64,000 nt of DNA from Myxococcales bacterium (GTDB lineage Bacteria; Myxococcota_A; Polyangia; Polyangiales; Polyangiaceae). This document shows, piece by piece, positions 3,940-48,031 of the stretch (the stretch's first letter is position 1; every line of letters begins with the position of its first letter). A program made the position numbers and the translations under genes. The stretch spans positions 217,516 to 281,515 of the forward strand of contig JADKKK010000003.1 of assembly GCA_016720545.1 (NCBI GenBank), written 5' to 3'. The notes below the pieces were generated by a model. The model had not been told where the DNA came from. It saw only the letters and a list, made by a program, of their open reading frames with translations, and made no database searches.

Positions 3940-4956
3940 TCAGGGCGGCGAGGGGAACACGGCCACGGAGGTGGCGGCGCCGGCGCGGATGAGGGTTCGC
4001 GTCGAGCCAATGCGCTTCCCGCTGTCGGCCCACTCCGCCGTGAACGTGTGGAACCCCGGCGGAATATTGATGAAGCCGGCGCGCCCGAGCGGATCGGTCT
4101 TCTTGTCCGCGCCAATCTCGGGGGTCGAGCCGATGATGTAGAAAGGCACGAGCAGCGGGTCGAGGGCGGTCGTGGTGAAGCGCACCCCGGAGAGCGGGTT
4201 GTTGTTGCAGTCGCGCGCGAACACGAAGACCAGCGCGTGGTTCACCGAGTCGTACGCGTTCGGTTTCCCGAGCGCCGTGTCGGCCAGATACGAGATCTCC
4301 TGGGGGCGCAGCATGAGCTGGAGGAAGTCGGTCTTGGGGGCCCGCAGCGGGGGCGACGTGTAACGGAACGTCGGCGCGTAGGCGCCGGACTTCACTTCGA
4401 AGAAGCCCTCGAAGCCGTACTCCACAGTCGCCGCAACCCAGCCCTCGGCGGTGGGCACCACGAAGCCCGCGCCCGCCTCGGGGCCGGCGTCCGCGGGGCC
4501 GCCAGCGTCGAGGTTGCGAGGGTTGTTGCACTGGTTGTCGGTCGAGGCGCAGAGACGGACCCCGACGCCCGTGGGCGGGATGCCGTTCGTGTAGTCGAGG
4601 TACTGGATCGACACGTCGACCTTGCGCGACGGATCCGGGTTGATCGCCGGAAGCGTCGCGCACGCGAACGGGTCGATGGCGGCGTCGGCAGCGTCGGGTG
4701 CGGCGTCCGGCGCGGCCGCGTCGGCGGGTGGGGCCGCGTCAACCTCGGGGCCCGCGACGCACAGGCTCTCGAGCGAGCAGCGGGTGTTCTCGAACCCTGC
4801 GCCTCGCGCGCGGCACTCGTCGTCCGACTTGCACTGCTCCTTGCTGGTCGAGAAGAGGAGCGAGCACGCGGAGTTGAGCGTCGCAAACCCAACGAACGCC
4901 GCGGCGAGGGCCGGGACGGTCGCTTTGGAGAGGTGAAGAATCCGACCGCGCACCAT
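3940..4956 (-). CDS. Secreted lipoprotein, hypothetical
   Basis: The internal ATG at 4956 gives a lipobox-containing signal peptide ('MVRGRILHLSKATVPALAAAFVGFATLNSAC'). It is Cys-containing and Asp/Ala-rich, and lies 35 bp upstream of and co-directional with the kinase. Confidence 0.55.
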   Translation of the reverse strand: MVRGRILHLSKATVPALAAAFVGFATLNSACSLLFSTSKEQCKSDDECRARGAGFENTRCSLESLCVAGPEVDAAPPADAAAPDAAPDAADAAIDPFACATLPAINPDPSRKVDVSIQYLDYTNGIPPTGVGVRLCASTDNQCNNPRNLDAGGPADAGPEAGAGFVVPTAEGWVAATVEYGFEGFFEVKSGAYAPTFRYTSPPLRAPKTDFLQLMLRPQEISYLADTALGKPNAYDSVNHALVFVFARDCNNNPLSGVRFTTTALDPLLVPFYIIGSTPEIGADKKTDPLGRAGFINIPPGFHTFTAEWADSGKRIGSTRTLIRAGAATSVAVFPSPP

Positions 4957-11917: not shown

Positions 11918-13423
11918 TCATGGGGGCGGTGGGGCGGGAGGCGGCGGCGCGCCAGACGCCGGCGCGCCGGGCGGGGCCGCCCCAGCGGCGAGGCGCTCGC
12001 GGAGGATGCGAGCGGCGTACGCGTACGAGGGGTTCTGCGGCTGCTCGCGCGCGAGCTGCTCGTAGGCCTCCGCCGCCTTGGCCAGATCGCCCTTGTGGAC
12101 CTCGTCGACCGCGGTGCGCTCGAGTGTGGGCCCCTTGCCCGCGTCTTTCCCCGCGGCCGCCGACGGATCGGACGTCCCCGAGGGGGCGGGGCCCGGCGTG
12201 GGGTTGGGCGCGTTGGGCGCAGTGCCCGGGGCGGTCGGAGTGGGCGTCGGCGGCGTGCTCGGCGGCGTGGGCGTGGGGACGAGGCCCATCGCCGAGGGCA
12301 CCGGCGCCGGATCGCCCGCCAGCGCACCGGCCTCGGCGCCCGCGTCGGACCGGGCGGCCTTTTTGGGCGGCGGCGGTGGATCGTCGGTGAAGAGGATGAG
12401 CGCCGCCGCGACGAGCGCCAGCGGCAGGATGATGTAGGTGAGCTTGCGGACGGGCGACGCGGTCTTGAAGTCGGCGATCGCCTTCTTCAGCGGGTCGGTC
12501 TCGGCGGGCGGCGCCGCCTGCGGGAGCTGTCCGACGCCAGAGGCCGAGAATCCTTGAGGGAAAAGTTGCTCCTGCCCGGCCGAGAACGAGCCGCCAGCCT
12601 GCATCGGCTGCATGGGGGGGAAGCCACTGCTTCCCCCGCTCATCGACGCGTTCGGGAAGCCGCCGCTCATGCCGGGCATCCCGCCGGGCATTCCCCCCTG
12701 CCCTTGCATCGGGAAGCCGCCGCTCGCGCCGGGCCCTTGCATCGGGAAGCCGCCGCTCGCGCCGGGCCCTTGCATCGGGAAACCGCCGCTCATGCCTGCG
12801 CTGGGCATCCCGGGCGCCTGCATGGGGAAGCCGCCCCCGGCGGGCGGGAAGGCGCCGGTGGGCGGGCGGGTGCCGCTGCGCGACATGGAGAGATCCAGGG
12901 GCGCGACCCGCGTGGACTCGCCGTCGTCGGCCTGGCTCGAGAACGCCCCGGGCTGGAACGGCCGCGACGGCGCGTCGGTGGGCACCGCCGGAGCGCCCCC
13001 CGAGATTTGCGCGGTGCGGGCAGCGGGTGGCTGGCCAGCCGCAGGAATAGGGGCTGCGGTCGGCGCCTTCGGGGGCGCAGCGGGCGCAGGCGGCGGACCG
13101 GCCGCGGCCCGCTCTTCGGCGCGGTACTCCAAGCGCGCGCCACCGATGTCGATGCTGCAAGGCGGGCGCACCTCGGTCCACTCGGTGCCGATGGGGAAGC
13201 CGTCGACACACGCCGCGTTGTCGGGGTCGGTGGTCTGAAGGAAGAGCGCGTAGCCGTCAAAGTACGCGTACGCGTGCACGTCGAGCATGCGCGCGCCGTC
13301 GATCCGCCACTGGCCGCGGCGGCCGATGCTCAGCGTGGGGGACTCCTTCCCGGAGGTGAGCGGGATGAACCCGGGCTCCCCGATTCCGTTCACGATCTCG
13401 ATGACGTGGGTGGAGGCCGCCAT
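11918..13423 (-). CDS. FHA-like domain protein with Pro/Gly-rich repeats, TM segment and C-terminal TPR-like region
   Basis: The N-terminus is FHA-like ('TLSIGRRGQWRIDGARMLDVHAYAYFDGYALFLQ'). It is followed by three 33-nt in-frame tandem repeats encoding 'GPGASGGFPMQ', then a TM segment ('LTYIILPLALVAAALILF'). The ATG at 13423 is in frame. Confidence 0.55.
   Translation of the reverse strand: MAASTHVIEIVNGIGEPGFIPLTSGKESPTLSIGRRGQWRIDGARMLDVHAYAYFDGYALFLQTTDPDNAACVDGFPIGTEWTEVRPPCSIDIGGARLEYRAEERAAAGPPPAPAAPPKAPTAAPIPAAGQPPAARTAQISGGAPAVPTDAPSRPFQPGAFSSQADDGESTRVAPLDLSMSRSGTRPPTGAFPPAGGGFPMQAPGMPSAGMSGGFPMQGPGASGGFPMQGPGASGGFPMQGQGGMPGGMPGMSGGFPNASMSGGSSGFPPMQPMQAGGSFSAGQEQLFPQGFSASGVGQLPQAAPPAETDPLKKAIADFKTASPVRKLTYIILPLALVAAALILFTDDPPPPPKKAARSDAGAEAGALAGDPAPVPSAMGLVPTPTPPSTPPTPTPTAPGTAPNAPNPTPGPAPSGTSDPSAAAGKDAGKGPTLERTAVDEVHKGDLAKAAEAYEQLAREQPQNPSYAYAARILRERLAAGAAPPGAPASGAPPPPAPPPP
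12700..12798 (-). repeat. 33-bp in-frame tandem repeat x3 (encodes GPGASGGFPMQ)
   Basis: The unit 'ccttgcatcgggaagccgccgctcgcgccgggc' is repeated directly. Confidence 0.7.
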
Positions 13424-19789: not shown

Positions 19790-19828
19790 GCCCTGCTCCT
19801 CGCAGTTTCGGCGGCGGCGGCCATGGCC

Positions 19829-19888
19829 GCTACTTGGCCGCTTACTTGGCCGCTTACTTGGCCGCTTACTTGGCCGCTTACTTGGCCG
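19829..19888. repeat. 12-bp tandem direct repeat (cttacttggccg) x~5
   Basis: Four perfect units plus one degenerate unit lie immediately 3' of the secretin gene. The rightmost unit supplies the secretin stop codon (TAA), and each further unit carries TAA in the same frame. The repeats are in the intergenic space before the FHA-CpaF gene. Confidence 0.75.
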
Positions 19889-27260: not shown

Positions 27261-28237
27261 TGGAGATCGAGGTCCTGGGGCTTGACGCCGGGGACCACTT
27301 CCATGATCGACATGGCGGTGGTTCCAGAGCCGGCCGCGCGCCGCGCGGTGATGATCACCTGGGTGCCGCCGTTGAAGTACGCCCGCATCGTGCCTTCGGG
27401 GTGCTCGGGGGCGATCGAGCGCCAGTCGCCCGTGCTGGCGGCCCACTTGTCGTAGAAGACGCCCACGTCCTCTGGCGCCAGCGAGGTCTCGTAGATGCGC
27501 ACGCCATACGGGCTGCCGACGACCTCGGCCGTCATGAGGCGCTTGGCGCCGTTGGGGCGCGGGAGGAGCGAGTCGCTGCCGGGAGCGGTGCCGTCCGTGT
27601 TGGCGATCTTCGCGAAACTAAAGGAGTTGTCGGTCCAGGCGGTGACCACGCGGGTGCCGTGGGTGGTCTCCCGCGCATAGACGTACCGAAGCTTGCCGAG
27701 GTCGCCAAGGTCCTGCGACTCGGCGAAATTCTTGAGGGCGTCCGTGGCGCTGTTGGACGTGCGCTCTCCCTTGATGAGGCACATCACCGCGCCCTCGCCC
27801 GTGCTCCCCTGGGTGCGGAGGATGCCCGAGTGCATCGTCTTCGGCAGCTTGTGCCCGTCGACCACCATGTTCGCCTTGGGCACCTGCGACCAGAGCTCTC
27901 CAAGGGCGCCTTTGTCTTGCTCGCAGCGGCCCTCATAGTCGTCCAGAATCGACTTCACCGTCGCGTCGGTCATGCCTTCGCGAAGGAAGAAGCTCTGGCC
28001 GTTGAGGCGGACTTCACTGGCGCCGTCGCTCGCGAGCGGCGCGATCTCGCGGCCAAACTTGAGGGTCGCCTTGCCGATATCGGCCTTAGCGGTGTGGGTC
28101 GCGAACAGGCCAACGCCGAGACCCGCCACGAGCACGACCGCAGCTGCGCGGCCCGCGCCGCGGATTTGCTGTGCGCGGGCGCTGTTGAAGCCCTTGGCGT
28201 TTCGCCAGGCGATGAGCAGGGGGCCGAGCATGTTCAT
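27257..28237 (-). CDS. Hypothetical N-terminally anchored membrane/periplasmic protein
   Basis: It has a TM near the N-terminus ('AAVVLVAGLGVGLFA') and is co-operonic with the pseudopilin genes. No recognisable domain was found. Confidence 0.5.
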   Translation of the reverse strand: MNMLGPLLIAWRNAKGFNSARAQQIRGAGRAAAVVLVAGLGVGLFATHTAKADIGKATLKFGREIAPLASDGASEVRLNGQSFFLREGMTDATVKSILDDYEGRCEQDKGALGELWSQVPKANMVVDGHKLPKTMHSGILRTQGSTGEGAVMCLIKGERTSNSATDALKNFAESQDLGDLGKLRYVYARETTHGTRVVTAWTDNSFSFAKIANTDGTAPGSDSLLPRPNGAKRLMTAEVVGSPYGVRIYETSLAPEDVGVFYDKWAASTGDWRSIAPEHPEGTMRAYFNGGTQVIITARRAAGSGTTAMSIMEVVPGVKPQDLDLQ

Positions 28238-28280
28238 GGCGACCGCCCCTGGCCTCACTTCGGTTCATGGGACCAAACTC

Positions 28281-28796
28281 CTAGTTCGCCGCGCCAGCGA
28301 TCTTACCCTTAACGTAGCCGAACATGCCGCTGAAGCTGCCGTCTTCCGGTGTCTCGTTGCACACGGCGGTCGACGTGAGACTGTTGACCTTGAGCGAGAG
28401 CCCCATCCCCCGGGTGGAGGTGTTGGGCTTCGGATTGATGACGGTGGTCGAGGCGTACGTGACCTGGGTCTTCGCCATGAAGCCGCTGGTCTTCGCCTGC
28501 CCTGGAGCGTTCGCGAGGGCCTCGGCCGACTGGCTGTCGGCGGCGCCGACGCCGCCTCCCACCCCCGCGGAGCCCTGCGAGCGGCTCGTGTTTCCGTACT
28601 GAATCACCTGCCGCTGGCACTGGTGAGAGGCGTAGTCGAGCGCCATGGAGCGCGCCTGCTGGTTCTGCGTGAGCTTCACCGTGTACGCGTTGCCCATCAT
28701 CATGGTGAGTCCGAGGAAGGAGACCATCACCGGCAGCACCACCGCCGCTTCCACCATCGCCGCTCCCCGAAGGGAGAATTTGCGGGACTTCTTCAT
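28281..28796 (-). CDS. TadE-like pseudopilin
   Basis: The N-terminus ('RGAAMVEAAVVLPVMVSFLGLTMMMG') is the TadE/TadF signature. The ATG at 28796 is in frame. Confidence 0.65.
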   Translation of the reverse strand: MKKSRKFSLRGAAMVEAAVVLPVMVSFLGLTMMMGNAYTVKLTQNQQARSMALDYASHQCQRQVIQYGNTSRSQGSAGVGGGVGAADSQSAEALANAPGQAKTSGFMAKTQVTYASTTVINPKPNTSTRGMGLSLKVNSLTSTAVCNETPEDGSFSGMFGYVKGKIAGAAN

Positions 28797-33785: not shown

Positions 33786-36509
33786 CTACTTCGTGCGTGG
33801 CTCGCGCGGCGGGAGGGCGGGCGCCTTTGCCTTGGTGGCCTTGGTGGCCTTGGTGGCCTTGGTGGCCTTGGTGGCCTTGGTGGCCTTGGTGGCCTTGGTG
33901 GCCTTGGCTGAGTCGCGGGTCGGCTTCGCTGCGCGGAGCTTCGTGGGGCGCTCGGGCCCGACGCGCGCCTCGAGCTTCCGGAGGCGTGTCTCGAGGTCGT
34001 GCGCGTGGGCGCGGAGCTTCTCGAGCTCCGCCTCAGCTTCGTGTGCGCCCGCTTTGCGGTCGCCCGTGAGGTCGCGGAGGACCTCGCGGAGACGGCGGCG
34101 CACACGCACGTCGTCTTCGACGCCCTCGCGGGCACGGAGGGCGCCTCGCGCGCGCGGATCGCCCATGAGCTGGAGGGCGCGCGCGACGTCTTGGCGCAGC
34201 AGCGGGTCGCGATCGTCGAGCAGCTCCTCGAGCAGCTCGCGATCGTCGCGCGCCTCGGAGAGCCTACCGATCGCGAGCGCGGCGGCTCGGCGCGCCCTCG
34301 GCGCCTGCCCGTAGCGGGTCTTGGCGCGGAGGTGGGGCAACGCGCGCGGATCGCGCAGCGACGCGAGCCCGTCGATCGCGCCGGTCCGCACAACCTCGGC
34401 CCACGAGGGGCGATCGAGGAGCTCTACGAGGTCGTCGAGGGCGCCGCCTTGGCGCGTCTTGCCGAGCGAGCGCGCTGCTTCCGCGCTGACGAAGTAGCTC
34501 GCGTCGGAGCGCGCGACGTGGGCGAGGAGCGTCGCCGCCGCCGCGGTGCGGCTCGCGCCCAGCGCCTCTGCGACGGCACGGCGGACCTTCGGCGAGGTCA
34601 CGCCGAGCGCGCGCTCGAGGGCCTCGAACGCGTCCGGCGCGCGTGAGCGGCCGAGCGCCGTGGCGCACTCGGCGCGGACACCCCAGAACTCGTGCTCGTC
34701 GTGGAGGCGCGCCGCGAGCGCGGCTCGCGTGGGGGGGTCGTCGACCCGGGAGAGGCTGCCCGCGGCGAGCCACCGACCCCGCGCCGTGGGCGCGTGGGCG
34801 AGCTGCTCGCGGAGCATGTCGAGCGGACCGCGGACGCTCACCTCGCCGAGCACCCGCAGGTCGGGATCGACGACGACGAAGCGAGGGCGACGCGGCGAAG
34901 GGAGCGCGAACACCTGGTGGCGCTGCGTGAGCTCGACTTCGAGGCGCTTCACCACCGGGCGACCGCGCTCGGTCGCGGTCGCGCAGTCGAGCACGAGCGG
35001 CGCGTGGAAGACGGAGGGCACTCCGTCGGTCGCCGCCTGCCCCTGCTTGACCGTGACGAGCAAGATGCCCTCGTCCCACGCGAACGACACCTCGAGCTCG
35101 ACGTGACCGGCCCGGTGCACGAGCTCCTCGAAGGCGCGCCCGAGGCTGCGACCCGACACGCGCTCGAGAGCGCGCTGGAGATCGCGCGTCTCGACGAGGC
35201 CCTTCGCGTGCGCGCGAAGGTAGTGCGCGACGCCGGCGAAGAAGCCGTCGTCCCCGACGGTGCGGCGCAGCACGTGGAGCACGAGCCCGCCCTTCTCGTA
35301 GAGGTGGCGGTCGAACAGATCGAGCGGGGCGTCGTAGTCGAGGCAGACCAGGGGGCGGCGGTAGCGGCCGCGCGCCTCCGCCACGTAGTTGGCGAGGTCG
35401 GTCTTGAGCCCGTACTCGTACTCGTCGAGCCCGAGGCGGTGCTCGCGGAAGAGGTGCTCGCAGAACGTCGCGAAGCCTTCGTTGAGCCACGCCTCCGACC
35501 AGTCGCGGCACGTGACCAGATCGCCGAACCACTGGTGGGCGAGCTCGTGCGCGATGAGGTCGTCGCTCGTGCCGTCGAGCGCGGCGCGCTCGTCGAGCAG
35601 CACGTGCTCGTAGAGCGTCGTCGCGGTGGTGTTCTCCATTCCCCCGAAGAAGAAGTCGGAGACGACCGCCTGCGCGTACTTGCTCCAGGGATACGGCGAC
35701 GCGAAACGATGGCCAAAGAAACGCATCATTTCCGCGGTTTGCGCGAACGTACGGCGGGCGTCGGCGGCGCGCCCCGGCGGCACGTAATACGTGAGGGGCG
35801 CGGGGCCGTCGTCCTCGAGCACCTCGAGCTCGCCGACCACCAGCGTGAGCAGGTAGCTCGGGTGAGGCTCGCTCATCTTCCAATGGAAGAGGACGCCGTC
35901 GGGGCGCGGCTCGCGCGCCGCGAGGTGCCCGTTCGAGAGCGCCGTGTAGCCCGGCGGGACGACCACCGACAGCTCGGTGGTCATCTTCACGTGGGGCTTG
36001 TCGTGGGAGGGGAAGAAGTGCCGCGCGTCCTCCTCTTGGCACTGAGTCCACGCCTGGCGTGGCAGGTGCGGGCGGTGCTCGTCGGGCTCGATGAAGTAGA
36101 GCCCGCGGCGCGGCGTGCAGGTGTACACGACGCGCACGATGGCCTCTTCGAGGTCGCCCAGCTCCACCCGGAGCGCGCAGCCGTCGTAGATGAAGTCGGC
36201 GCGGGCGCCTCCCACCTCGACCGCCGAGAGCGTGAAGCCCACGGCGTCGAGGGTGATCGCCGACGCCGTCGGGCTCACCCGGCGGACGTGCAGCGTCGCC
36301 GTGCCAGCGACCTCGTGTTTCTCGAACGAGAGGCCGAGGTCGAGCGCGAGGTGCTCGATGACGAAGGGGCGATCACGCTCGAAGTTGCGAGGGCTCGTCG
36401 CGAACGCGAACGCGAACGGGCGGCCTTGCGCGGCTTGGCTCCGCTGCTCCGTGTGTTCGGTGCCCCCGGAGAGGCACCGGCAGCGGGCGTGGAGGCGGTG
36501 CTCTCCCAT
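33786..36509 (-). CDS. pepN: M1-family aminopeptidase N with C-terminal HEAT-like repeats and (KAT)n tail
   Basis: It has the GAMEN-like motif 'GGMENTT', the zinc motif 'HELAHQWFGD' and 'WLNEGFATF'. The C-terminus ends in KATKATKAT..., encoded by a 9-bp tandem repeat. Confidence 0.8.
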   Translation of the reverse strand: MGEHRLHARCRCLSGGTEHTEQRSQAAQGRPFAFAFATSPRNFERDRPFVIEHLALDLGLSFEKHEVAGTATLHVRRVSPTASAITLDAVGFTLSAVEVGGARADFIYDGCALRVELGDLEEAIVRVVYTCTPRRGLYFIEPDEHRPHLPRQAWTQCQEEDARHFFPSHDKPHVKMTTELSVVVPPGYTALSNGHLAAREPRPDGVLFHWKMSEPHPSYLLTLVVGELEVLEDDGPAPLTYYVPPGRAADARRTFAQTAEMMRFFGHRFASPYPWSKYAQAVVSDFFFGGMENTTATTLYEHVLLDERAALDGTSDDLIAHELAHQWFGDLVTCRDWSEAWLNEGFATFCEHLFREHRLGLDEYEYGLKTDLANYVAEARGRYRRPLVCLDYDAPLDLFDRHLYEKGGLVLHVLRRTVGDDGFFAGVAHYLRAHAKGLVETRDLQRALERVSGRSLGRAFEELVHRAGHVELEVSFAWDEGILLVTVKQGQAATDGVPSVFHAPLVLDCATATERGRPVVKRLEVELTQRHQVFALPSPRRPRFVVVDPDLRVLGEVSVRGPLDMLREQLAHAPTARGRWLAAGSLSRVDDPPTRAALAARLHDEHEFWGVRAECATALGRSRAPDAFEALERALGVTSPKVRRAVAEALGASRTAAAATLLAHVARSDASYFVSAEAARSLGKTRQGGALDDLVELLDRPSWAEVVRTGAIDGLASLRDPRALPHLRAKTRYGQAPRARRAAALAIGRLSEARDDRELLEELLDDRDPLLRQDVARALQLMGDPRARGALRAREGVEDDVRVRRRLREVLRDLTGDRKAGAHEAEAELEKLRAHAHDLETRLRKLEARVGPERPTKLRAAKPTRDSAKATKATKATKATKATKATKATKATKAKAPALPPREPRTK
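33822..33910 (-). repeat. 9-bp in-frame tandem repeat (cttggtggc) x8-10 encoding (KAT)n
   Basis: There are eight perfect units at 33831-33902 plus degenerate flanking units. Confidence 0.8.
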
Positions 36510-39733: not shown

Positions 39734-40377
39734 TTCGGCGCCCCCGCCTGGCCAGGCGCGCCAGGCGCACCAGGCGCACCAGGCGCACCAGGCGTACCAG
39801 GTGCGGCGGCGGGCTTGATGAGATGGAACGTCGTCGCGAGGCACATGGCCTTCAGCACCACGTCTTCGCCCTCGACCTTGGGATCGCTCAGCTCGACGTT
39901 CTCGAGGTTGATGATGCGGTCCTGTTTGCCGATCTCGAACATGAACTTGCCGATCTGGTGGAACTTGCCCGACAGCTCGAGGCGCATCGGGACCTTCGCG
40001 TAGAAGGTTGCGGGGACCTCTTCTTGGGGCTGCCACGCCTTCAGGTTGGTGCCGCTGATGTTCGAGACCTGTTGGATGGCCGACAGGAACGCCGCGGCCT
40101 CGGTCTCGGCAGGCAGGATCTTGTTGAGCTCACGCTGCTTCTGCTGGCGCATGGCGAGCTCTTCGCGGTCTTGGATGTAGCTGGCCTCCGCCTGGCGGAG
40201 GCTCACGATTTGGGCCTCGAGCTCCTTCGAGCGGCGGCCCTCCTGCTCGATCTTCGCGACGACGTCGGTGTGGAGCACCACGTAGTAACCGACGGCGACG
40301 AGCACGACGAGGAAGAGTCCGAAGCCTACCTTCGCGGGGAGCGAGAGCTTGGAGAGGCTGATCGACGCGGCGGCCAT
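39730..40377 (-). CDS. pilO: PilO inner-membrane pilus alignment protein
   Basis: It has a single N-terminal TM followed by a coiled coil. The C-terminal (PGA)n is encoded by the 9-bp repeat 'ccaggcgca' x~5 at about 39755-39805. Confidence 0.75.
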   Translation of the reverse strand: MAAASISLSKLSLPAKVGFGLFLVVLVAVGYYVVLHTDVVAKIEQEGRRSKELEAQIVSLRQAEASYIQDREELAMRQQKQRELNKILPAETEAAAFLSAIQQVSNISGTNLKAWQPQEEVPATFYAKVPMRLELSGKFHQIGKFMFEIGKQDRIINLENVELSDPKVEGEDVVLKAMCLATTFHLIKPAAAPGTPGAPGAPGAPGAPGQAGAPK

Positions 40378-43520: not shown

Positions 43521-43554
43521 TCCGCGCCACCCGACGCGAGCTCGTGCCTGACCT

Positions 43555-43596
43555 CGCCTGGCCTGGCCTGGCCTGGCCTCGCCTGGCCTCGCCTGG
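43555..43596. repeat. Pentanucleotide microsatellite (cctgg/cctcg) x8
   Basis: It lies in the 117-bp convergent intergenic gap. Confidence 0.6.
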
Positions 43597-43637
43597 CCGC
43601 GCGGCTCTCGCGCGGGACTGGCGGTGTGCGCTCGACG

Positions 43638-46286
43638 CTACCTCTTGGTGGGCGGCGGTACGGGGCTCGTGGGCAAGAACCGGAAGCCCCGCGGGGCCAG
43701 CGGCTTGGCGACCGCGTAGAGCGTGGTCGCGTCGTAGCTCGCGTGGGGCGGCGCAGACGTGCCGCTCCGGTGCCAGGACACGGGCTCGGCCACGCCCCGC
43801 TCGAGCTGCACCACCCGCTCACAGCCGAGCGCGACGAGCGCCTCCACCGGCCCTCGGCCGGCGGCGGACGCGCGTGCAATATACACATTGCCGCTGGCGA
43901 TCCCGAGCGCTGCGCGCGCGGGGCGATCACCGACGGCGCGCCCCTCGTCGGCGAGGAGGGGGAGCTCGGCGTAGTCGTGGTGAGCGAGGTCGGCGGGGAG
44001 CTCGCGGGCGAGCTGGATGGCGAGCGCGCCGTCTTCGCGCGCGACCAGGAGGGCGCGTCCTTCCCCGCTCGCGGCGGCGGTAGGCGCCGCGGCGTGCGGC
44101 GAGTGCACGACGCGGCCGTCGGTCGCGAGCCCCCACGGCCGCTTCTCCGGCGACGTGCCCAGCGTGAGCGCGAAGAGGGCGCGCTTCGCGTCGGCCTCCC
44201 CGAGCTCGTGGAGCGCCTCGCCCGAGGCGCCCGAGGGCTCTCGTTTTCCGCCGCGAATTCGATAGGTTGCGCGACCGGAAGACACGAGCGAGACCTCGAC
44301 CCCGAGGGCGGTGCGCGTGGACCAGACCCCCGGGTGCCACGCGGGGGCGGGCTGCGTGCCCGCCTCGGGCGCCCACGGGCGCGCGCCCTCGAGCGGGGGC
44401 GGCGTGGGGTCGCTCACCATCATGTAGAAGAAGTCCTTCGGGGAGAACTCGATGAAGCGGTCGGGTGAGATCTCCATCTGGTTCGTGAGCAGCTCGGTCT
44501 TGTAGGCCTTGCCCTTGATCTCGGTGATGTTGGTGAACACGAGCCCGGTGTGGTGCGGGTTCATGTCGAGGTGCATGCCGTAGACGCAGCCGGCCATCTT
44601 CATGGCCTTGCCGAGGGTGTTCGCGGAGACGTCGTCGCCCCACGCGTAGAGCATGTGCCCGGCGGGCGTGACGCAGATGCCCGAGCGCTCGGTCTGCATG
44701 CTGGTGCCGGGGAGCGTGAACCCCCACAGCGAGCGACCGGTAGGGTTCACCTTGTCGCCGTCGAGGAGCGGGTCGAGGTTCTGGCGGAAGGAGAGGATGT
44801 CCCCGTCGTCGATCCCGGCGAGCCCCGAGACCTTGGTCGTGTTGCCCCAAGAGCCCATCCCCACGCGGCCGTCCTTCAGGAGGACGACGGCGGCCGCACC
44901 CGGCTGGGGCGGCAGCAGCACGCGCCGACGGACCATCATGCCGTAGCTGCCGTGCTCGGTCTTGAAGCCGCCGTTGAACGCGGCGGCGACGCGCCCGAAC
45001 ACCGCCTTCTCGCGCGGAATGCGGCCCGCGCCCGGTGGACCGACGGCCGGCTTGGGGTCCTCCATGCCGCCCTCCATGCCGAGGTCGAGTTGGCGCATGT
45101 CCATCGCGACGAGGAGCACCTTCGCGTAGGGGCGCTCCTCGTCCGAGCGGACGAACGTGCGGTAGAACATGCTCGGCGCCGTGGCCTGGCCGGGCACCCC
45201 CGGAAAGCTGGGGAAGCGCTTCAGCCAGGCCTGCGTGGGGACCACCCAGGCGCCCTCGCCCTCCTGCGGGTTCTTCCAGATCGACGGGATGTCCGCGGGA
45301 GGAAAGCCCGCGCCTCCCTCCCCCGCTTCGGCGGCATCGAGGAGCTTCGGAGGGGGCGGCGCGGCCTTCGCGAGCTCGCTGCCCTCGGCGCCACCGCCGA
45401 CCTTGAACGACAAGCGGCGGGCCTGATCACGCGCGTAGAACGCGCGCTCCTCGAGCCACGCGATGGGCGCAGGCCCGATCTCGGGCATCGCGCGGACGGT
45501 GTCGACCGCCCAGAAGATGGGGCGCTTCGGGAGGTGCTGGACGGCCTGCGCGTGGACGCCCTCGGCCTCGGGGACGACCTCGCGCGTGGCGCCGTCGAGG
45601 CGCGCGCTGCGGGCGCTCGCGCCGTCGGCGAGGGACACCCGGAGCCCTCCCTCGTCGAGCGCGAGCCCGAGACGCGGAGTGGGCAACTCGAGGGTCAGAT
45701 CGACGCGACCGATGCCTGCGAAAGAGCCGGTCTGCTGGTAGTTCGTGACCGCCGACATGACGCGGTCAGCGGCGTGCGTGGCGAGGTTCTGTGGGCCTTC
45801 GCCGGCGAGGTCGAGGTAGCTGACGCTCTGCTCCTGGCCAAACGCGTACGTGGCGTAGGCCGCCTTGTCTCCGAGGAGGACGAGCGCGTGGTCGTCGCCG
45901 AGGTCCGTGGCGGTGAGGTTCCTCGCGTCCACCACCTCGAGCACGCGCCCCTCGGGAGTGACGCGAACGCGCGCGCGAAAGAGGTCGCGCGGAGCGTCCT
46001 TGGCGGCACCGGCGAGGAACAGCACGCGGCGCCCGAACAGCGCGTCGAGCGCGGCGCCGCGGCTCGCCTCCCAGCGGTAGTCTCCGCTCCCGACGACCCG
46101 ACCCGTCGCGCGGCCGAGGAGCAGCGCGACGCCCGCAGAGGAGGCCTCGACGGGCGAGGGGCGGGCCAGGGCCACGACGACGCCGAGCGCCGAGAACGCC
46201 GCGAGGGCGGCGCGGCGGCTAGCGAGGGCGGCGGTCGGCGAGGCGGGCGGAGCGGTCACGGCGTGCCTACATTGGACACGTTGCAT
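43638..46286 (-). CDS. Large secreted protein with phosphodiester-glycosidase-like (DUF2233/NAGPA-like) C-terminal region
   Basis: It has an N-terminal hydrophobic signal region and consistent coding composition over 882 aa. The domain call is pattern-level only. Confidence 0.5.
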   Translation of the reverse strand: MQRVQCRHAVTAPPASPTAALASRRAALAAFSALGVVVALARPSPVEASSAGVALLLGRATGRVVGSGDYRWEASRGAALDALFGRRVLFLAGAAKDAPRDLFRARVRVTPEGRVLEVVDARNLTATDLGDDHALVLLGDKAAYATYAFGQEQSVSYLDLAGEGPQNLATHAADRVMSAVTNYQQTGSFAGIGRVDLTLELPTPRLGLALDEGGLRVSLADGASARSARLDGATREVVPEAEGVHAQAVQHLPKRPIFWAVDTVRAMPEIGPAPIAWLEERAFYARDQARRLSFKVGGGAEGSELAKAAPPPPKLLDAAEAGEGGAGFPPADIPSIWKNPQEGEGAWVVPTQAWLKRFPSFPGVPGQATAPSMFYRTFVRSDEERPYAKVLLVAMDMRQLDLGMEGGMEDPKPAVGPPGAGRIPREKAVFGRVAAAFNGGFKTEHGSYGMMVRRRVLLPPQPGAAAVVLLKDGRVGMGSWGNTTKVSGLAGIDDGDILSFRQNLDPLLDGDKVNPTGRSLWGFTLPGTSMQTERSGICVTPAGHMLYAWGDDVSANTLGKAMKMAGCVYGMHLDMNPHHTGLVFTNITEIKGKAYKTELLTNQMEISPDRFIEFSPKDFFYMMVSDPTPPPLEGARPWAPEAGTQPAPAWHPGVWSTRTALGVEVSLVSSGRATYRIRGGKREPSGASGEALHELGEADAKRALFALTLGTSPEKRPWGLATDGRVVHSPHAAAPTAAASGEGRALLVAREDGALAIQLARELPADLAHHDYAELPLLADEGRAVGDRPARAALGIASGNVYIARASAAGRGPVEALVALGCERVVQLERGVAEPVSWHRSGTSAPPHASYDATTLYAVAKPLAPRGFRFLPTSPVPPPTKR

Positions 46287-46296
46287 GGCTCGTCAA

Positions 46297-46734
46297 GTTC
46301 ATCGCGACACCTCGCCTTCGGCTCGGGGTCGCCATCGACCTTCGTTCGCCCCTTCGGGGCTCACTTCGAGGTTCATCGCGACACCTCGCCTTCGGCTCGG
46401 GGTCGCCATCGACCTTCGTTCGCCCCTTCGGGGCTCACTTCGAGGTTCAGCGCGACACCTCGCCTTCGGCTCGGGGTCGCCATCGACCTTCGTTCGCCCC
46501 TTCGGGGCTCACTTCGAGGTTCATCGCGTCACCTCTCCTTCCGCTCGGGGTCGCCATCGACCTTCGTTCGCCCCTTCGGGGCTCACTTCGAGGTTCATTG
46601 CGACACCTCTCCTTCGGCTCGGGGTCGCCATCGACCTTCGTTCGCCCCTTCGGGGCTCACTTCGAGGTTCATCGCGTCACCTCTCCTTCCGCTCGGGGTC
46701 GCCATCGACCTTCGTTCGCCCCTTCGGGGCTCAC
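46297..46734. repeat. 74-bp tandem repeat array, ~6 copies, each with a GCCCC-TTC-GGGGC hairpin
   Basis: Unit starts at 46297, 46371, 46445, 46519, 46593 and 46667 give an exact 74-bp period with a few substitutions between copies. It sits in the divergent promoter region between the 882-aa gene (ATG 46286) and the FIST gene (ATG 46832). The period is not a multiple of 3. Confidence 0.85.
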
Positions 46735-46831
46735 GTGCCGGTTCTGCGGCCGCGCGCTCAGCCGTAACCAAACGGAGACGCAGCAGCGCTTGCCTCGGGC
46801 GCCGGTCCTTGCTCTCTTGCCAGCGGGGGAC

Positions 46832-48031
46832 ATGACGCTCTTTTCGTCCGCAGTTTCCTGCGCACCGATCCTCGTTGACGCGCTCGACGAGGCCATGGCG
46901 CGCGCGCGCGCCGACCTCGGCGATCACACGCCGTCGCTCGCGATCGTGTTCGCCAGCGATGGCTATGCTTCGCTCGAGGCGGTCGCGGGGCGTGTCGCTG
47001 AGCACCTCCCGGGGGTGCCCTTCGTCGGCGGCACGTCGGGCGGGTGCGTGTTCGACACGACGCGCTTCGGCTACATGGGCGTGTGCGTGGCGCTCCTCGC
47101 CGGGGGCGACCTGCGCGTCGAGACGCGCGCCGTGCCGATCGTGAGCGGGGAGCTGCTCGAGGTCGCGACGGCCGCCGAAGAGCTGCGCCTCCTCGCCGAC
47201 GCGCACGCAGAGGAGGGGCGCGGGGAGCTCACGTGCCTCGCCTTCGCGCCGAGCCGCGGCATCGTCGGCGACGCGCTCGTCGCGGCGCTCAAGAAGGGCG
47301 CGACCGCGCGCGCTCAGCTCGTCGGCGGCCTGCTGGCGCAAGAGGGGAGCATGTCGGGCGGTCGCGTCTGGTCCAGCGGGGGCGTGAGCGAGGCCCACGT
47401 GGTGCTCGCGGGCCTCTACACGGAGCGCCCGCTCGGCGTCGCGGTGCGGCACGGCTGGACGCCCATCGGCGACACCCACCGCGTGACCCGCGCCGACGGG
47501 GCGCGCCTGCACGAGCTCGACGGGCGCCCGGCGCTCGACGTGTGGCTCGAAGAGGCGACCCGCCACGGGGGGGAGCCGCTTCCTGGTGAAGCCGGCTCGC
47601 TCGCTCTCCATCTCGCGGCTCGCTACGAGCTCGCGATCTTGGGCACCGAGGCGCACCTGGACGGCGAGCCGATCGTGCGCGGCTCGCGCGTGATCCACGA
47701 CGACCGCACCGTCGAGCTGTTCGGGAGCGTGCCCGAGGGCGCCCAGGTGCGCTTCGTCACGGCCACCGAGGGGTCGCTGTTCGCCGCCGCGAAGTACGCG
47801 GCGGAGCACGCGCTCGGGAAGGTCGCCCGCGCGTCGGGTGCGCTGGCGCTCACCTGCGCGGGGCGCGCGTTCGTGCTCGGCGACCGGTACCGCCTCGAGC
47901 CCGAGCTCCTCGCCGCGACGCTCGGGGTCCCGGTGGGTGGCACCACCGTGACCGGCGAGATCGCGCTCGCGCGCCGCGCCGCGGACGGCTTCTACAACTC
48001 GACGGCCGTCTTGCTCGTGTTCCCTCGCTAA
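46832..48031 (+). CDS. FIST-domain sensory protein
   Basis: It has FIST N- and C-domain-like sequence and no TM. The ATG at 46832 is in frame. The upstream part of the track ORF is a translation of the 74-bp repeats. Confidence 0.65.
   Translation: MTLFSSAVSCAPILVDALDEAMARARADLGDHTPSLAIVFASDGYASLEAVAGRVAEHLPGVPFVGGTSGGCVFDTTRFGYMGVCVALLAGGDLRVETRAVPIVSGELLEVATAAEELRLLADAHAEEGRGELTCLAFAPSRGIVGDALVAALKKGATARAQLVGGLLAQEGSMSGGRVWSSGGVSEAHVVLAGLYTERPLGVAVRHGWTPIGDTHRVTRADGARLHELDGRPALDVWLEEATRHGGEPLPGEAGSLALHLAARYELAILGTEAHLDGEPIVRGSRVIHDDRTVELFGSVPEGAQVRFVTATEGSLFAAAKYAAEHALGKVARASGALALTCAGRAFVLGDRYRLEPELLAATLGVPVGGTTVTGEIALARRAADGFYNSTAVLLVFPR

Follow-up and report, generated by a model that had tools for sequence, protein, structure and literature searches.

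The 64,000-nt stretch analysed here (positions 217,516 to 281,515 of contig JADKKK010000003.1, assembly GCA_016720545.1, from a Myxococcales bacterium of the Polyangiaceae; hereafter the window) has a GC content of 70% and carries an array of six head-to-tail 74-nt units on its minus strand. The array occupies 444 nt (46297-46740) between two divergent genes, one encoding a protein with FIST_N and FIST_C domains and the other, downstream of the array on the minus strand, a protein of 873 amino acids (Table 1). Tandem Repeats Finder places the array at 46297-46734 (period 74, 5.9 copies, 96% matches, score 813), a repeat search returned a start-to-start spacing of 74 nt five times over, and units 1 to 6 match their consensus at 74, 74, 73, 71, 72 and 67 of 74 positions, with differences only at positions 6, 7, 11, 18 and 24 and, in unit 6, among the final six bases. 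The 34-mer GCCATCGACCTTCGTTCGCCCCTTCGGGGCTCAC, which makes up the 3' 34 nt of the unit, is exact in 6/6 units, with an expectation of 0 in shuffled sequence. An earlier reading of the stretch from its letters alone (the sequence-only reading) had described six near-identical tandem units and had set them apart from a CRISPR array; both points hold, as the units abut directly with no spacers between them. The repeat search found no inverted repeats of 12 nt or more in the array region, and no other full-length copy of the unit was found in the window by blastn or nhmmer.

The informative strand is the minus strand, that of the downstream gene, which the sequence-only reading overlooked together with the Shine-Dalgarno-like (SD-like) sequence and the ATG that end each unit. 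Read on this strand, a unit consists of GAAC, a first hairpin (hairpin 1), a second hairpin (hairpin 2) enclosing the SD-like GGCGAGGUG, and ATG-AAC; the consensus of the repeat family to which the units belong is GAACCTGGAAGTGAGCCCCGAAGGGGCGAACGAAGGTCGATGGCGAGCCCGAGCCGAAGGCGAGGTSTCGCCATGAAC. The window copies of hairpin 2 carry a G.G mismatch, with further changes in units 4-6, where the SD-like sequence is GGAGAGGTG. Both of the motifs that the sequence-only reading had quoted for every unit are present, but cgccttcggctcggggtcgcc is intact in units 1-3 only. The TAG of the 11-codon open reading frame (ORF) that begins at the ATG of unit 1 lies 7 nt before the GTG at 46259.

This GTG bears on the start of the 873-aa gene, which the sequence-only reading had placed at the ATG at 46286, giving a protein of 882 amino acids. 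The array does start 10-11 nt from that ATG, but the codon (46284-46286) is not conserved in two related species, where the conserved start is the GTG at 46257-46259, and the recorded gene call on the matching contig of an NCBI metagenome-assembled genome (MAG) also begins at GTG 46259 and yields 873 amino acids. A start at ATG 46286, with its 882 amino acids, is therefore probably an error, and the gene would start at GTG 46259; the N-terminus of its product contains SRRAALAAF, which resembles a twin-arginine signal. On the other side, the distance of about 100 bp given for the FIST gene measures 87-91 nt to the ATG at 46832. A scan for sigma-70 promoters called none, nor did a scan for intrinsic terminators; the hexamer TTGACG just downstream of the array may possibly be a -35 element.

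Table 1. Coordinates of the array, its parts, the neighbouring genes and related copies elsewhere (positions are those of the window unless a locus label, L followed by a number, is given)
Feature	Position	Strand	Remarks
Gene for 873-aa protein, downstream of array	43638..46259	-	conserved GTG start; RR-containing signal-like N-terminus; no Pfam domain
FIST_N + FIST_C gene, divergent	46832..48031	+	ATG 87 nt from distal array end
Candidate -35 element TTGACG, just downstream of insertion point	46291..46296	-	conserved in window, L076 and L079
Array unit starts	46297, 46371, 46445, 46519, 46593, 46667		plus-strand coordinates
Proximal junction core GAAC	46297-46300	-	from alignment with empty sites
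Distal junction core GAAC (GTTC on plus strand)	46741..46744	-	from alignment with empty sites
Hairpin 1, unit 1: GCCCC-GAA-GGGGC with GUGA and GAAC flanks	46348..46360	-	every 74 nt; invariant in 6/6 units
Hairpin 2, unit 1: AUGGCGAC...GUCGCGAU	46301..46335	-	every 74 nt; encloses SD-like sequence and A and U of terminal AUG
SD-like GGCGAGGTG, unit 1	46308..46316	-	5 nt upstream of unit ATG; every 74 nt; as read from the sequence
Terminal ATG, unit 1	46300..46302	-	
Other junction codons	ATG 46374-46376; CTG 46448-46450; ATG 46522-46524, 46596-46598, 46670-46672	-	
Distal junction codon	46744-46746	-	CAG, i.e. no start codon
11-codon ORF MNLTSHATCPM* from unit 1 ATG	46267..46302	-	out of frame with downstream gene
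Probable relic ATGAACCGAAGTGAGGCCAGGGGCGGTCGCCATGAAC, 37 nt	28232..28268	-	between TadE-like gene (stop 28281-28283) and next gene; found by end-motif searches
Type B loci	L016:~4680-4745, L030:5692-5965, L039:7868-7940, L072, L020, L027		
Loci with GTGAGCCCCGAAGGGGCGAACG in other contexts	L011, L025 (Kiritimatiellota MAG); L046, L047, L049, L050, L054, L061, L067, L070 (JGI Ga0316616/7, Ga0315276); L057, L063, L069 (low-GC contigs)		

Empty sites and a dispersed family

The array is absent from the same place in two related species, whose FIST orthologues are 89% and 81% identical to that of the window and diverge from the neighbouring gene as in the window, the intergenic distance being only 125 and 148 nt. 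Both loci (L076 and L079) have a single GAAC where the array would be (..CCGCR/GAAC/TTGACG..), as can be seen by setting L076, ..CCGCG/GAAC/TTGACG.., beside the window, ..CCGCA/GAAC/CGGCAC...GCGAT/GAAC/TTGACG... The block inserted in the window relative to these empty sites measures exactly 444 nt, or 6.0 units, with GAAC on both sides of it and flanks that correspond exactly to these sites. GTG 46259 lies 38 nt downstream of the insertion point, and both this GTG and the intervening block are conserved in the relatives.

Copy numbers of the array come from short-read assemblies, and 444 bp exceeds typical short reads; five other metagenome contigs end within the array. Either the array or its six-fold repetition could on these grounds be put down to faulty assembly. 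This is very unlikely, as two independent long contigs span the array with six units each in differing variant order, one JGI contig holds at least 5.3 units, and the flanks agree with the empty sites to the base. Compared with the window, an assembly of 99.8% identity, which has six units as well, shows another variant order, two CTG junctions and one 75-nt unit. The array is real; the exact number and order of its units are uncertain.

Altogether four comparisons of filled with empty sites reveal clean insertions at GAA(C). At one pair of loci the insertion sits exactly on the start codon of a lipoprotein gene, the empty site (L005) reading ..CGC ATG GAA CGA AGC.. and the filled one (L014) ..CGC ATG AAC CGG...GTC GCC ATG AAA CGA AGC... 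At another pair (L008 and L048), two divergent genes are affected in opposite ways. The left gene begins ATG CCC CCG GAC CCC AAC ACC... at the empty locus L008, and carries the element after codon 6 (AAC) in L048, where the old start opens the frame M P S D P N L R V S P E G A N G E V A P * with its TGA overlapping the new ATG AAC ACC...; the right gene is filled in L008, with 1.6 units, and empty in L048 (GAAGAC/CTCTTG). The junction repeat at the four filled sites is 3-6 nt long (GAA, GAAC or RTGAA).

To follow the unit beyond the window, its 22-nt core CGTTCGCCCCTTCGGGGCTCAC was used as a query against one genome per species. Matches were found at 39 loci: 22 in the MAG DAORJJ01 and 15 in the MAG CAZHGG01, each of which is labelled Polyangiaceae, and another 2 in a MAG of the Kiritimatiellota, these two having only the hairpin in common with the unit. 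The two Polyangiaceae MAGs contain full-length units, 82-98% identical to the window consensus, as single copies or as 2-7 tandem copies, and a metagenome scan added 30 further contigs with the 22-mer, including other loci of the JGI metagenome that holds the window's own locus. Many of the matches lie at contig ends. Wherever copies occur, singly or head-to-tail, their orientation is always that of the downstream gene, and at orthologous loci of the two MAGs copy number varies (1 versus 4 at one, 1 versus at least 2 at another). The repeat family belongs to a Polyangiaceae/Myxococcales lineage, and we found no prior description of it in myxobacteria in the open-access literature.

The sequence-only reading had allowed that the unit would be a generic extragenic repeat, with no role specific to this locus, if it turned up at many other loci, and in related genomes it does so. 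Its suggestion of a locally amplified element resembling repetitive extragenic palindromes (REPs) or MITEs (miniature transposable elements with inverted repeats) was essentially right, given a dispersed family and an array absent from two relatives, but neither a classical REP nor a classical MITE describes the element, since it lacks terminal inverted repeats and the GTAG or CGTC tag of REPs and forms only head-to-tail arrays. Another suggestion, that the six units are iteron-like binding sites through which a regulator controls the divergent FIST and 873-aa genes, could draw on the position of the array between these genes and on its regular 74-bp spacing. Because the unit also stands beside dozens of unrelated genes and is missing from the orthologous 125-148 nt intergenic regions, sites specific to this promoter are highly improbable, and the drift of unit sequences between strains also speaks against them.

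Within the window itself, searches with the end motifs of the family uncovered one further trace, a 37-nt sequence (28232-28268) that keeps both family ends and whose second ATG (28237) is the start of the next gene. Outside the array, the left-end motif matches nowhere else, and the right-end motif has a single exact match, at a distance of 12 nt from this sequence. From its sequence, we take it to be a probable internally deleted relic of the family, and its presence, at another gene's start codon, suggests that the family has been active elsewhere in the source genome.

An exact 22-mer comprising hairpin 1 and its G.A flanks (GTGAGCCCCGAAGGGGCGAACG) recurs in quite different repeats and contexts, in other phyla (Table 1). 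The recurrence is beyond chance, no Rfam family corresponds to the sequence, and it may be the mark of a shared trans-acting factor.

Gene starts, short frames and folding

The copies found elsewhere usually stand at what seem to be gene starts. At about 22 of the 29 independent loci with a complete gene-proximal unit, an ORF of 88 to more than 1,000 codons continues the frame of the terminal ATG or GTG, and its GC content at third codon positions (GC3) is 0.87-0.99, compared with 0.5-0.7 in the other frames (binomial p = 3e-6 against an expectation of 1/3). The second codon is always AAx. The N-termini of these ORFs look genuine, with lipoprotein signal peptides and with Pfam domains that begin within the first 25 residues, and the genes concerned are functionally unrelated, those for an adenylosuccinate lyase, a TrmB-type methyltransferase, a nucleotidyl transferase, an SNF2 helicase, a MacB/FtsX permease and kinases being among them. 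The window contains 177 RTGAA sites elsewhere, only a few of which resemble gene starts. Of 38 upstream (distal) junctions, about 22 likewise have an ATG or a GTG (p = 1e-15), as expected if the targeted start codon is repeated at both ends of the element.

Measured from start codon to start codon, units are 74 nt (27 units), 73 (11), 72 (4), 75 (2), 68 (2) or 67 nt (1) long. In all 74-nt units (27/27), the frame that opens at the upstream junction runs for 25 codons and ends in a TGA overlapping the downstream ATG (ATGA, a spacing of -4), whereas the 72- and 73-nt variants (15/47 units) stop early, after about 4 codons. A second type of unit (type B, the units described so far being type A) is 65 nt long and unrelated to type A in sequence, yet alternates with it, forming A/B hybrids and mosaic arrays. 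Its layout is the same, with a 5' AAC, an SD-like GAAGGGAG, a hairpin before the terminal ATG and a 22-codon frame ending in ATGA (6/6), and the last B unit supplies the gene start at four loci (L030, L039, L020 and L072). That two unrelated types should both be 2 mod 3 in length with a -4 overlap is the best hint that the coupling is by design, in a sample that is small. An 11-nt match of the type B unit to window positions 46259-46269 was considered and set aside as being at chance level (E = 1.2). At one locus (L071 and L075) a 75-nt variant apparently keeps the frame open from coding-like sequence on its upstream side into the ORF that follows, and translation could make of it an insert of 25 residues, as with the Rickettsia palindromic elements.

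Such open frames, which are found on both strands of the array, might be taken to mean that the array itself makes a product, either peptides (from 25-codon minus-strand mini-ORFs or from a 160-aa plus-strand ORF, 46285-46767) or, as the sequence-only reading had suggested, small RNAs. We regard this as scarcely credible. A period of 74 nt cannot be divided by 3, the frame is cut short in the variants of 72 and 73 nt, the 160-aa ORF has no Pfam match, and long spurious ORFs are expected at 70% GC. As for an RNA product or a known structured RNA, Rfam gave no match at gathering score in the whole window and only chance-level matches to the small hairpin in the array at E <= 10 (the best with an E of 3.6), and no promoter- or terminator-like site was called.

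The hairpins of the unit are well conserved in the family. Hairpin 1 (GCCCC-GAA-GGGGC, extended by tandem G.A, G-C and U-A pairs between GUGA and GAAC) is nearly invariant, its 5 pairs being formed in 98% of cases across 35 family copies. Hairpin 2 (AUGGCGAS...SUCGCCAU) encloses GGCGAGGUG, which is followed after 5 nt by the terminal AUG, and takes the A and the U of this codon into its pairing. In the structure as a whole 93% of cells are paired in the 35 copies, with three compensated pairs (U-A to C-G, C-G to G-C, and G-C/C-G at 14:12). Covariation scores 0.069, compared with 0.040 in shuffles and reached by 0/500 of them, and RNAalifold recovers the core of both hairpins. With RNA parameters the family consensus folds at -38.4 kcal/mol (z about -5), and the hairpins fold with DNA parameters as well (z = -3.2 and -4.0). 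On the gene strand G.U outnumbers A.C by 20 to 7, which favours this strand as the one that folds. The strong hairpins claimed for the array in the sequence-only reading are thus a property of the family consensus, but only partly of the window units, whose minus strand folds at -30.6 kcal/mol (z = -2.9), or -22 in the variant units (z = -1.0).

A resemblance of the GUGA-stem-GAAC arrangement to hammerhead ribozymes or k-turns was considered; in a comparison by eye the consensus cores of these motifs do not fit, and Rfam agrees. Two loci (L073:3-118 and L074:11-248) have arrays of a 37-nt sub-repeat with hairpin 1 only (GAGCCCCGAAGGGGCGAACGAAGGTCGAGGGC, about 6 copies), each array ending in a normal hairpin 2 and an ATG at a gene start.

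A fold that encloses an SD-like sequence and part of an AUG, with some compensatory changes, and that is found co-oriented at the 5' ends of many genes invites the idea that the unit is a cis-regulatory mRNA leader, for instance a translational operator or thermosensor, shared by a regulon, in which hairpin 2 would hide the SD sequence and the AUG until opened by a signal or factor and of which the array would be a multimer regulating the 873-aa gene. This seems improbable to us. Copies beside unrelated genes are 82-98% identical over the whole 74 nt, unpaired positions included; close relatives vary in the presence and copy number of the element; orthologues in two relatives do without it altogether; and in the window the unit ATG is out of frame, one junction is CTG and hairpin 2 is weakened. 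Regulatory side effects of individual insertions are possible.

The window has other tandem repeats besides the array. A pentanucleotide microsatellite (GCCTG, 10.6 copies, 43546-43598) fills part of the short gap that separates a PilM-like gene from the 873-aa gene at the latter's 3' end, and Tandem Repeats Finder also reports repeats at 33829-33907 (9 nt x 8.8, 100%), 12700-12791 (33 nt x 2.8, 98%), 19824-19888 (12 nt x 5.5, 98%) and 39752-39801 (9 nt x 5.6, 95%), the last four being probably coding repeats, as their periods are multiples of 3.

A probable small mobile repeat and its likenesses

Taken together, these observations make it likely that the array arose when a small, non-autonomous mobile repeat, with a 74-nt unit and a 65-nt sister type, was amplified in tandem to a variable number of copies. 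Such an element would insert at (R)TGAA(C), mostly at or just inside the 5' ends of genes, and would re-create an SD sequence and an ATG for the gene it enters. The old start codon would then open the 25-codon ORF whose TGA overlaps the new ATG, and translation of the gene might survive by termination and reinitiation. As the element ends in its own target sequence, re-insertion or unequal recombination could lengthen head-to-tail arrays. In the window, the insertion would have missed the start codon, landing upstream of it and just upstream of the conserved TTGACG; there, between two divergent core promoters, it would have been tolerated, would have expanded to six units and would now be decaying and drifting. 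The array is most likely a neutral variable-number repeat without a selected role at this locus, and its sole predictable effect would be that the DNA upstream of each core promoter has been moved 444 bp away.

Several points weigh against this interpretation or limit it. None of the loci examined yielded a transposase or another gene for mobilisation; the ORFs downstream of three copies consisting of the left half only (L055, L056 and L066) encode kinases or proteins of no assigned function and no transposases. The element's own end carries the junction bases, so that cut sites, duplication length and insertion chemistry cannot be read from the junctions. Dispersal is demonstrated in related MAGs and metagenomes, the 64-kb window having only the array and one short relic. 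The coupling model says little about the window array, which is off the start codon, has one CTG junction and has no distal start, and coupling is not universal in the family either, since about a third of the type A units (those of 73 and 72 nt) stop early; at 70% GC and with copies at least 90% identical, an open 25-codon frame is weak evidence of selection. The gene starts were deduced from ORF length, GC3 and N-terminal features, and at least one case counted as in frame (L008) probably starts further downstream. The G.U excess stems largely from one variant, the covariation rests on few events among young copies, and MAG contigs can be chimeric.

As to how the repeat moves, an IS200/IS605-like mechanism is an attractive guess in view of its subterminal hairpins, its fixed orientation and its regenerated short insertion-site sequence. 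In this version, which is compatible with the mobile-repeat interpretation, the unit would be a miniature element of the REP/REPIN type or derived from an IS200/IS605 insertion sequence (IS), moved as single-stranded DNA by a Y1 HUH transposase or a REP-associated tyrosine transposase (RAYT) that recognises the hairpins and cuts beside GAAC. The two subterminal hairpins without terminal inverted repeats (the first 15 nt match the reverse complement of the last 15 nt at 5/15 positions), their folding with DNA parameters, the insertion beside a short fixed sequence that is also carried at the element's end and the coincidence of internal GAAC sites with truncation points of units in L008 and L060 all fit, and an element that regenerates its insertion-site sequence would also account for head-to-tail arrays. 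The specific proposal nonetheless has only a minor chance of being correct, as the GTAG or CGTC tag is absent, the 3-6 nt junction repeat would also fit a target-site duplication, and no match to a Y1 transposase or RAYT was obtained by tblastn in about 0.5 Mb of locus DNA, a weak test made with IS608 TnpA and E. coli RAYT queries. Insertion of IS200/IS605 elements makes no duplication. The palindrome-associated miniatures derived from them share with our repeat the lack of terminal inverted repeats, the subterminal hairpins and the fixed orientation beside a short specific sequence, but for the latter no parent IS was found whose ends or transposase would match, and its junctions do show a short repeat.

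REPs are 20-40 nt long, bear a GTAG or CGTC tag and occur mainly as head-to-head dimers (head-to-tail ones being rare), and those with GTAG are linked to RAYT genes (PMC3733652). Like REPs, REPINs and bacterial interspersed mosaic elements, which are typically found 3' of genes, the myxobacterial units are abundant extragenic GC-rich hairpin repeats with mosaic arrays and a conserved short motif beside the stem. They differ in standing at gene 5' ends, in their length of 74 nt, in having two different hairpins and in being arranged head-to-tail in all arrays, the single inverted pair (L014) having come from one insertion at each of two divergent genes. Hairpin 1 is flanked by GTGA-G and CGTT-C rather than by GTAG or CGTC. 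Rickettsia palindromic elements and other intragenic repeats are likewise small and are tolerated within coding regions or at their margins, and some 75-nt copies (L071) would read through as they do; those elements, however, lie in frame inside genes and are translated within the protein, whereas here there is usually a separate mini-ORF and a new start codon.

The closest likeness is to the MIRUs (interspersed repetitive units of mycobacteria), which are about 40-100 bp in size and serve as variable-number tandem repeat markers. According to a 2025 review of translational coupling (PMC12548453, citing Supply et al. 1997, Mol Microbiol 26:991), MIRUs are apparently mobile repeats that insert at start codons, where an internal ORF coupled to the gene with a spacing of -4 minimises the effect on expression. 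The two families share: 1) short direct repeats at many loci, single or in variable-number head-to-tail arrays and co-oriented with the adjacent gene; 2) insertion at start codons together with an internal short ORF with a -4 (ATGA-type) overlap; and 3) a mobilising function that is still to be found. In the family studied here, dispersal and variable arrays are seen in the related genomes, start-codon insertion is seen across the family but not at the window locus, and the short ORF with its -4 spacing is present in all units of 74 and 65 nt, its translation being predicted. The myxobacterial element differs in having two GC-rich hairpins, an SD-like sequence of its own, a GAA(C) junction core and mosaics of 74- and 65-nt units, and the window array, at 38 nt upstream, is off the start codon. 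The likeness is one of layout and inferred behaviour. The phylum differs (Myxococcota rather than Actinomycetota), similarity of sequence is not to be expected across phyla, and the family is to be seen as an analogue of MIRUs, not as a shown homologue.

We therefore put forward, tentatively, a wider proposal: that a Polyangiaceae lineage harbours modular start-codon cassettes of 65-74 nt, an independent analogue of MIRUs, which enter GAA(C) sites where genes begin, put a hairpin-enclosed SD sequence and ATG of their own in place of the native region for translation initiation, and keep the gene expressed by way of a mini-ORF with a -4 overlap, hairpin 1, whose exact 22-mer occurs in other phyla, marking the mobilising factor. 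Were this so, the translation start of dozens of unrelated genes would be set by a mobile element.

For annotation, the array is to be recorded as a variable-number interspersed repeat and not as a regulatory array or a small-RNA locus, and these repeats also break metagenome assemblies, many copies lying at contig ends, and mislead start-codon calling in the genomes that carry them. The array itself is ordinary; the family is a new MIRU-like small mobile repeat that targets start codons. It looks like a second, phylogenetically independent instance of the MIRU strategy, that of a selfish start-codon repeat made harmless by translational coupling. Clean pairs of empty and filled sites, the GAA(C) junction, the conserved hairpins and two unit types of like design provide handles on the mobilising enzyme and on the coupling, and, as the movement of MIRUs has been unexplained since 1997, the myxobacterial family offers a way in.

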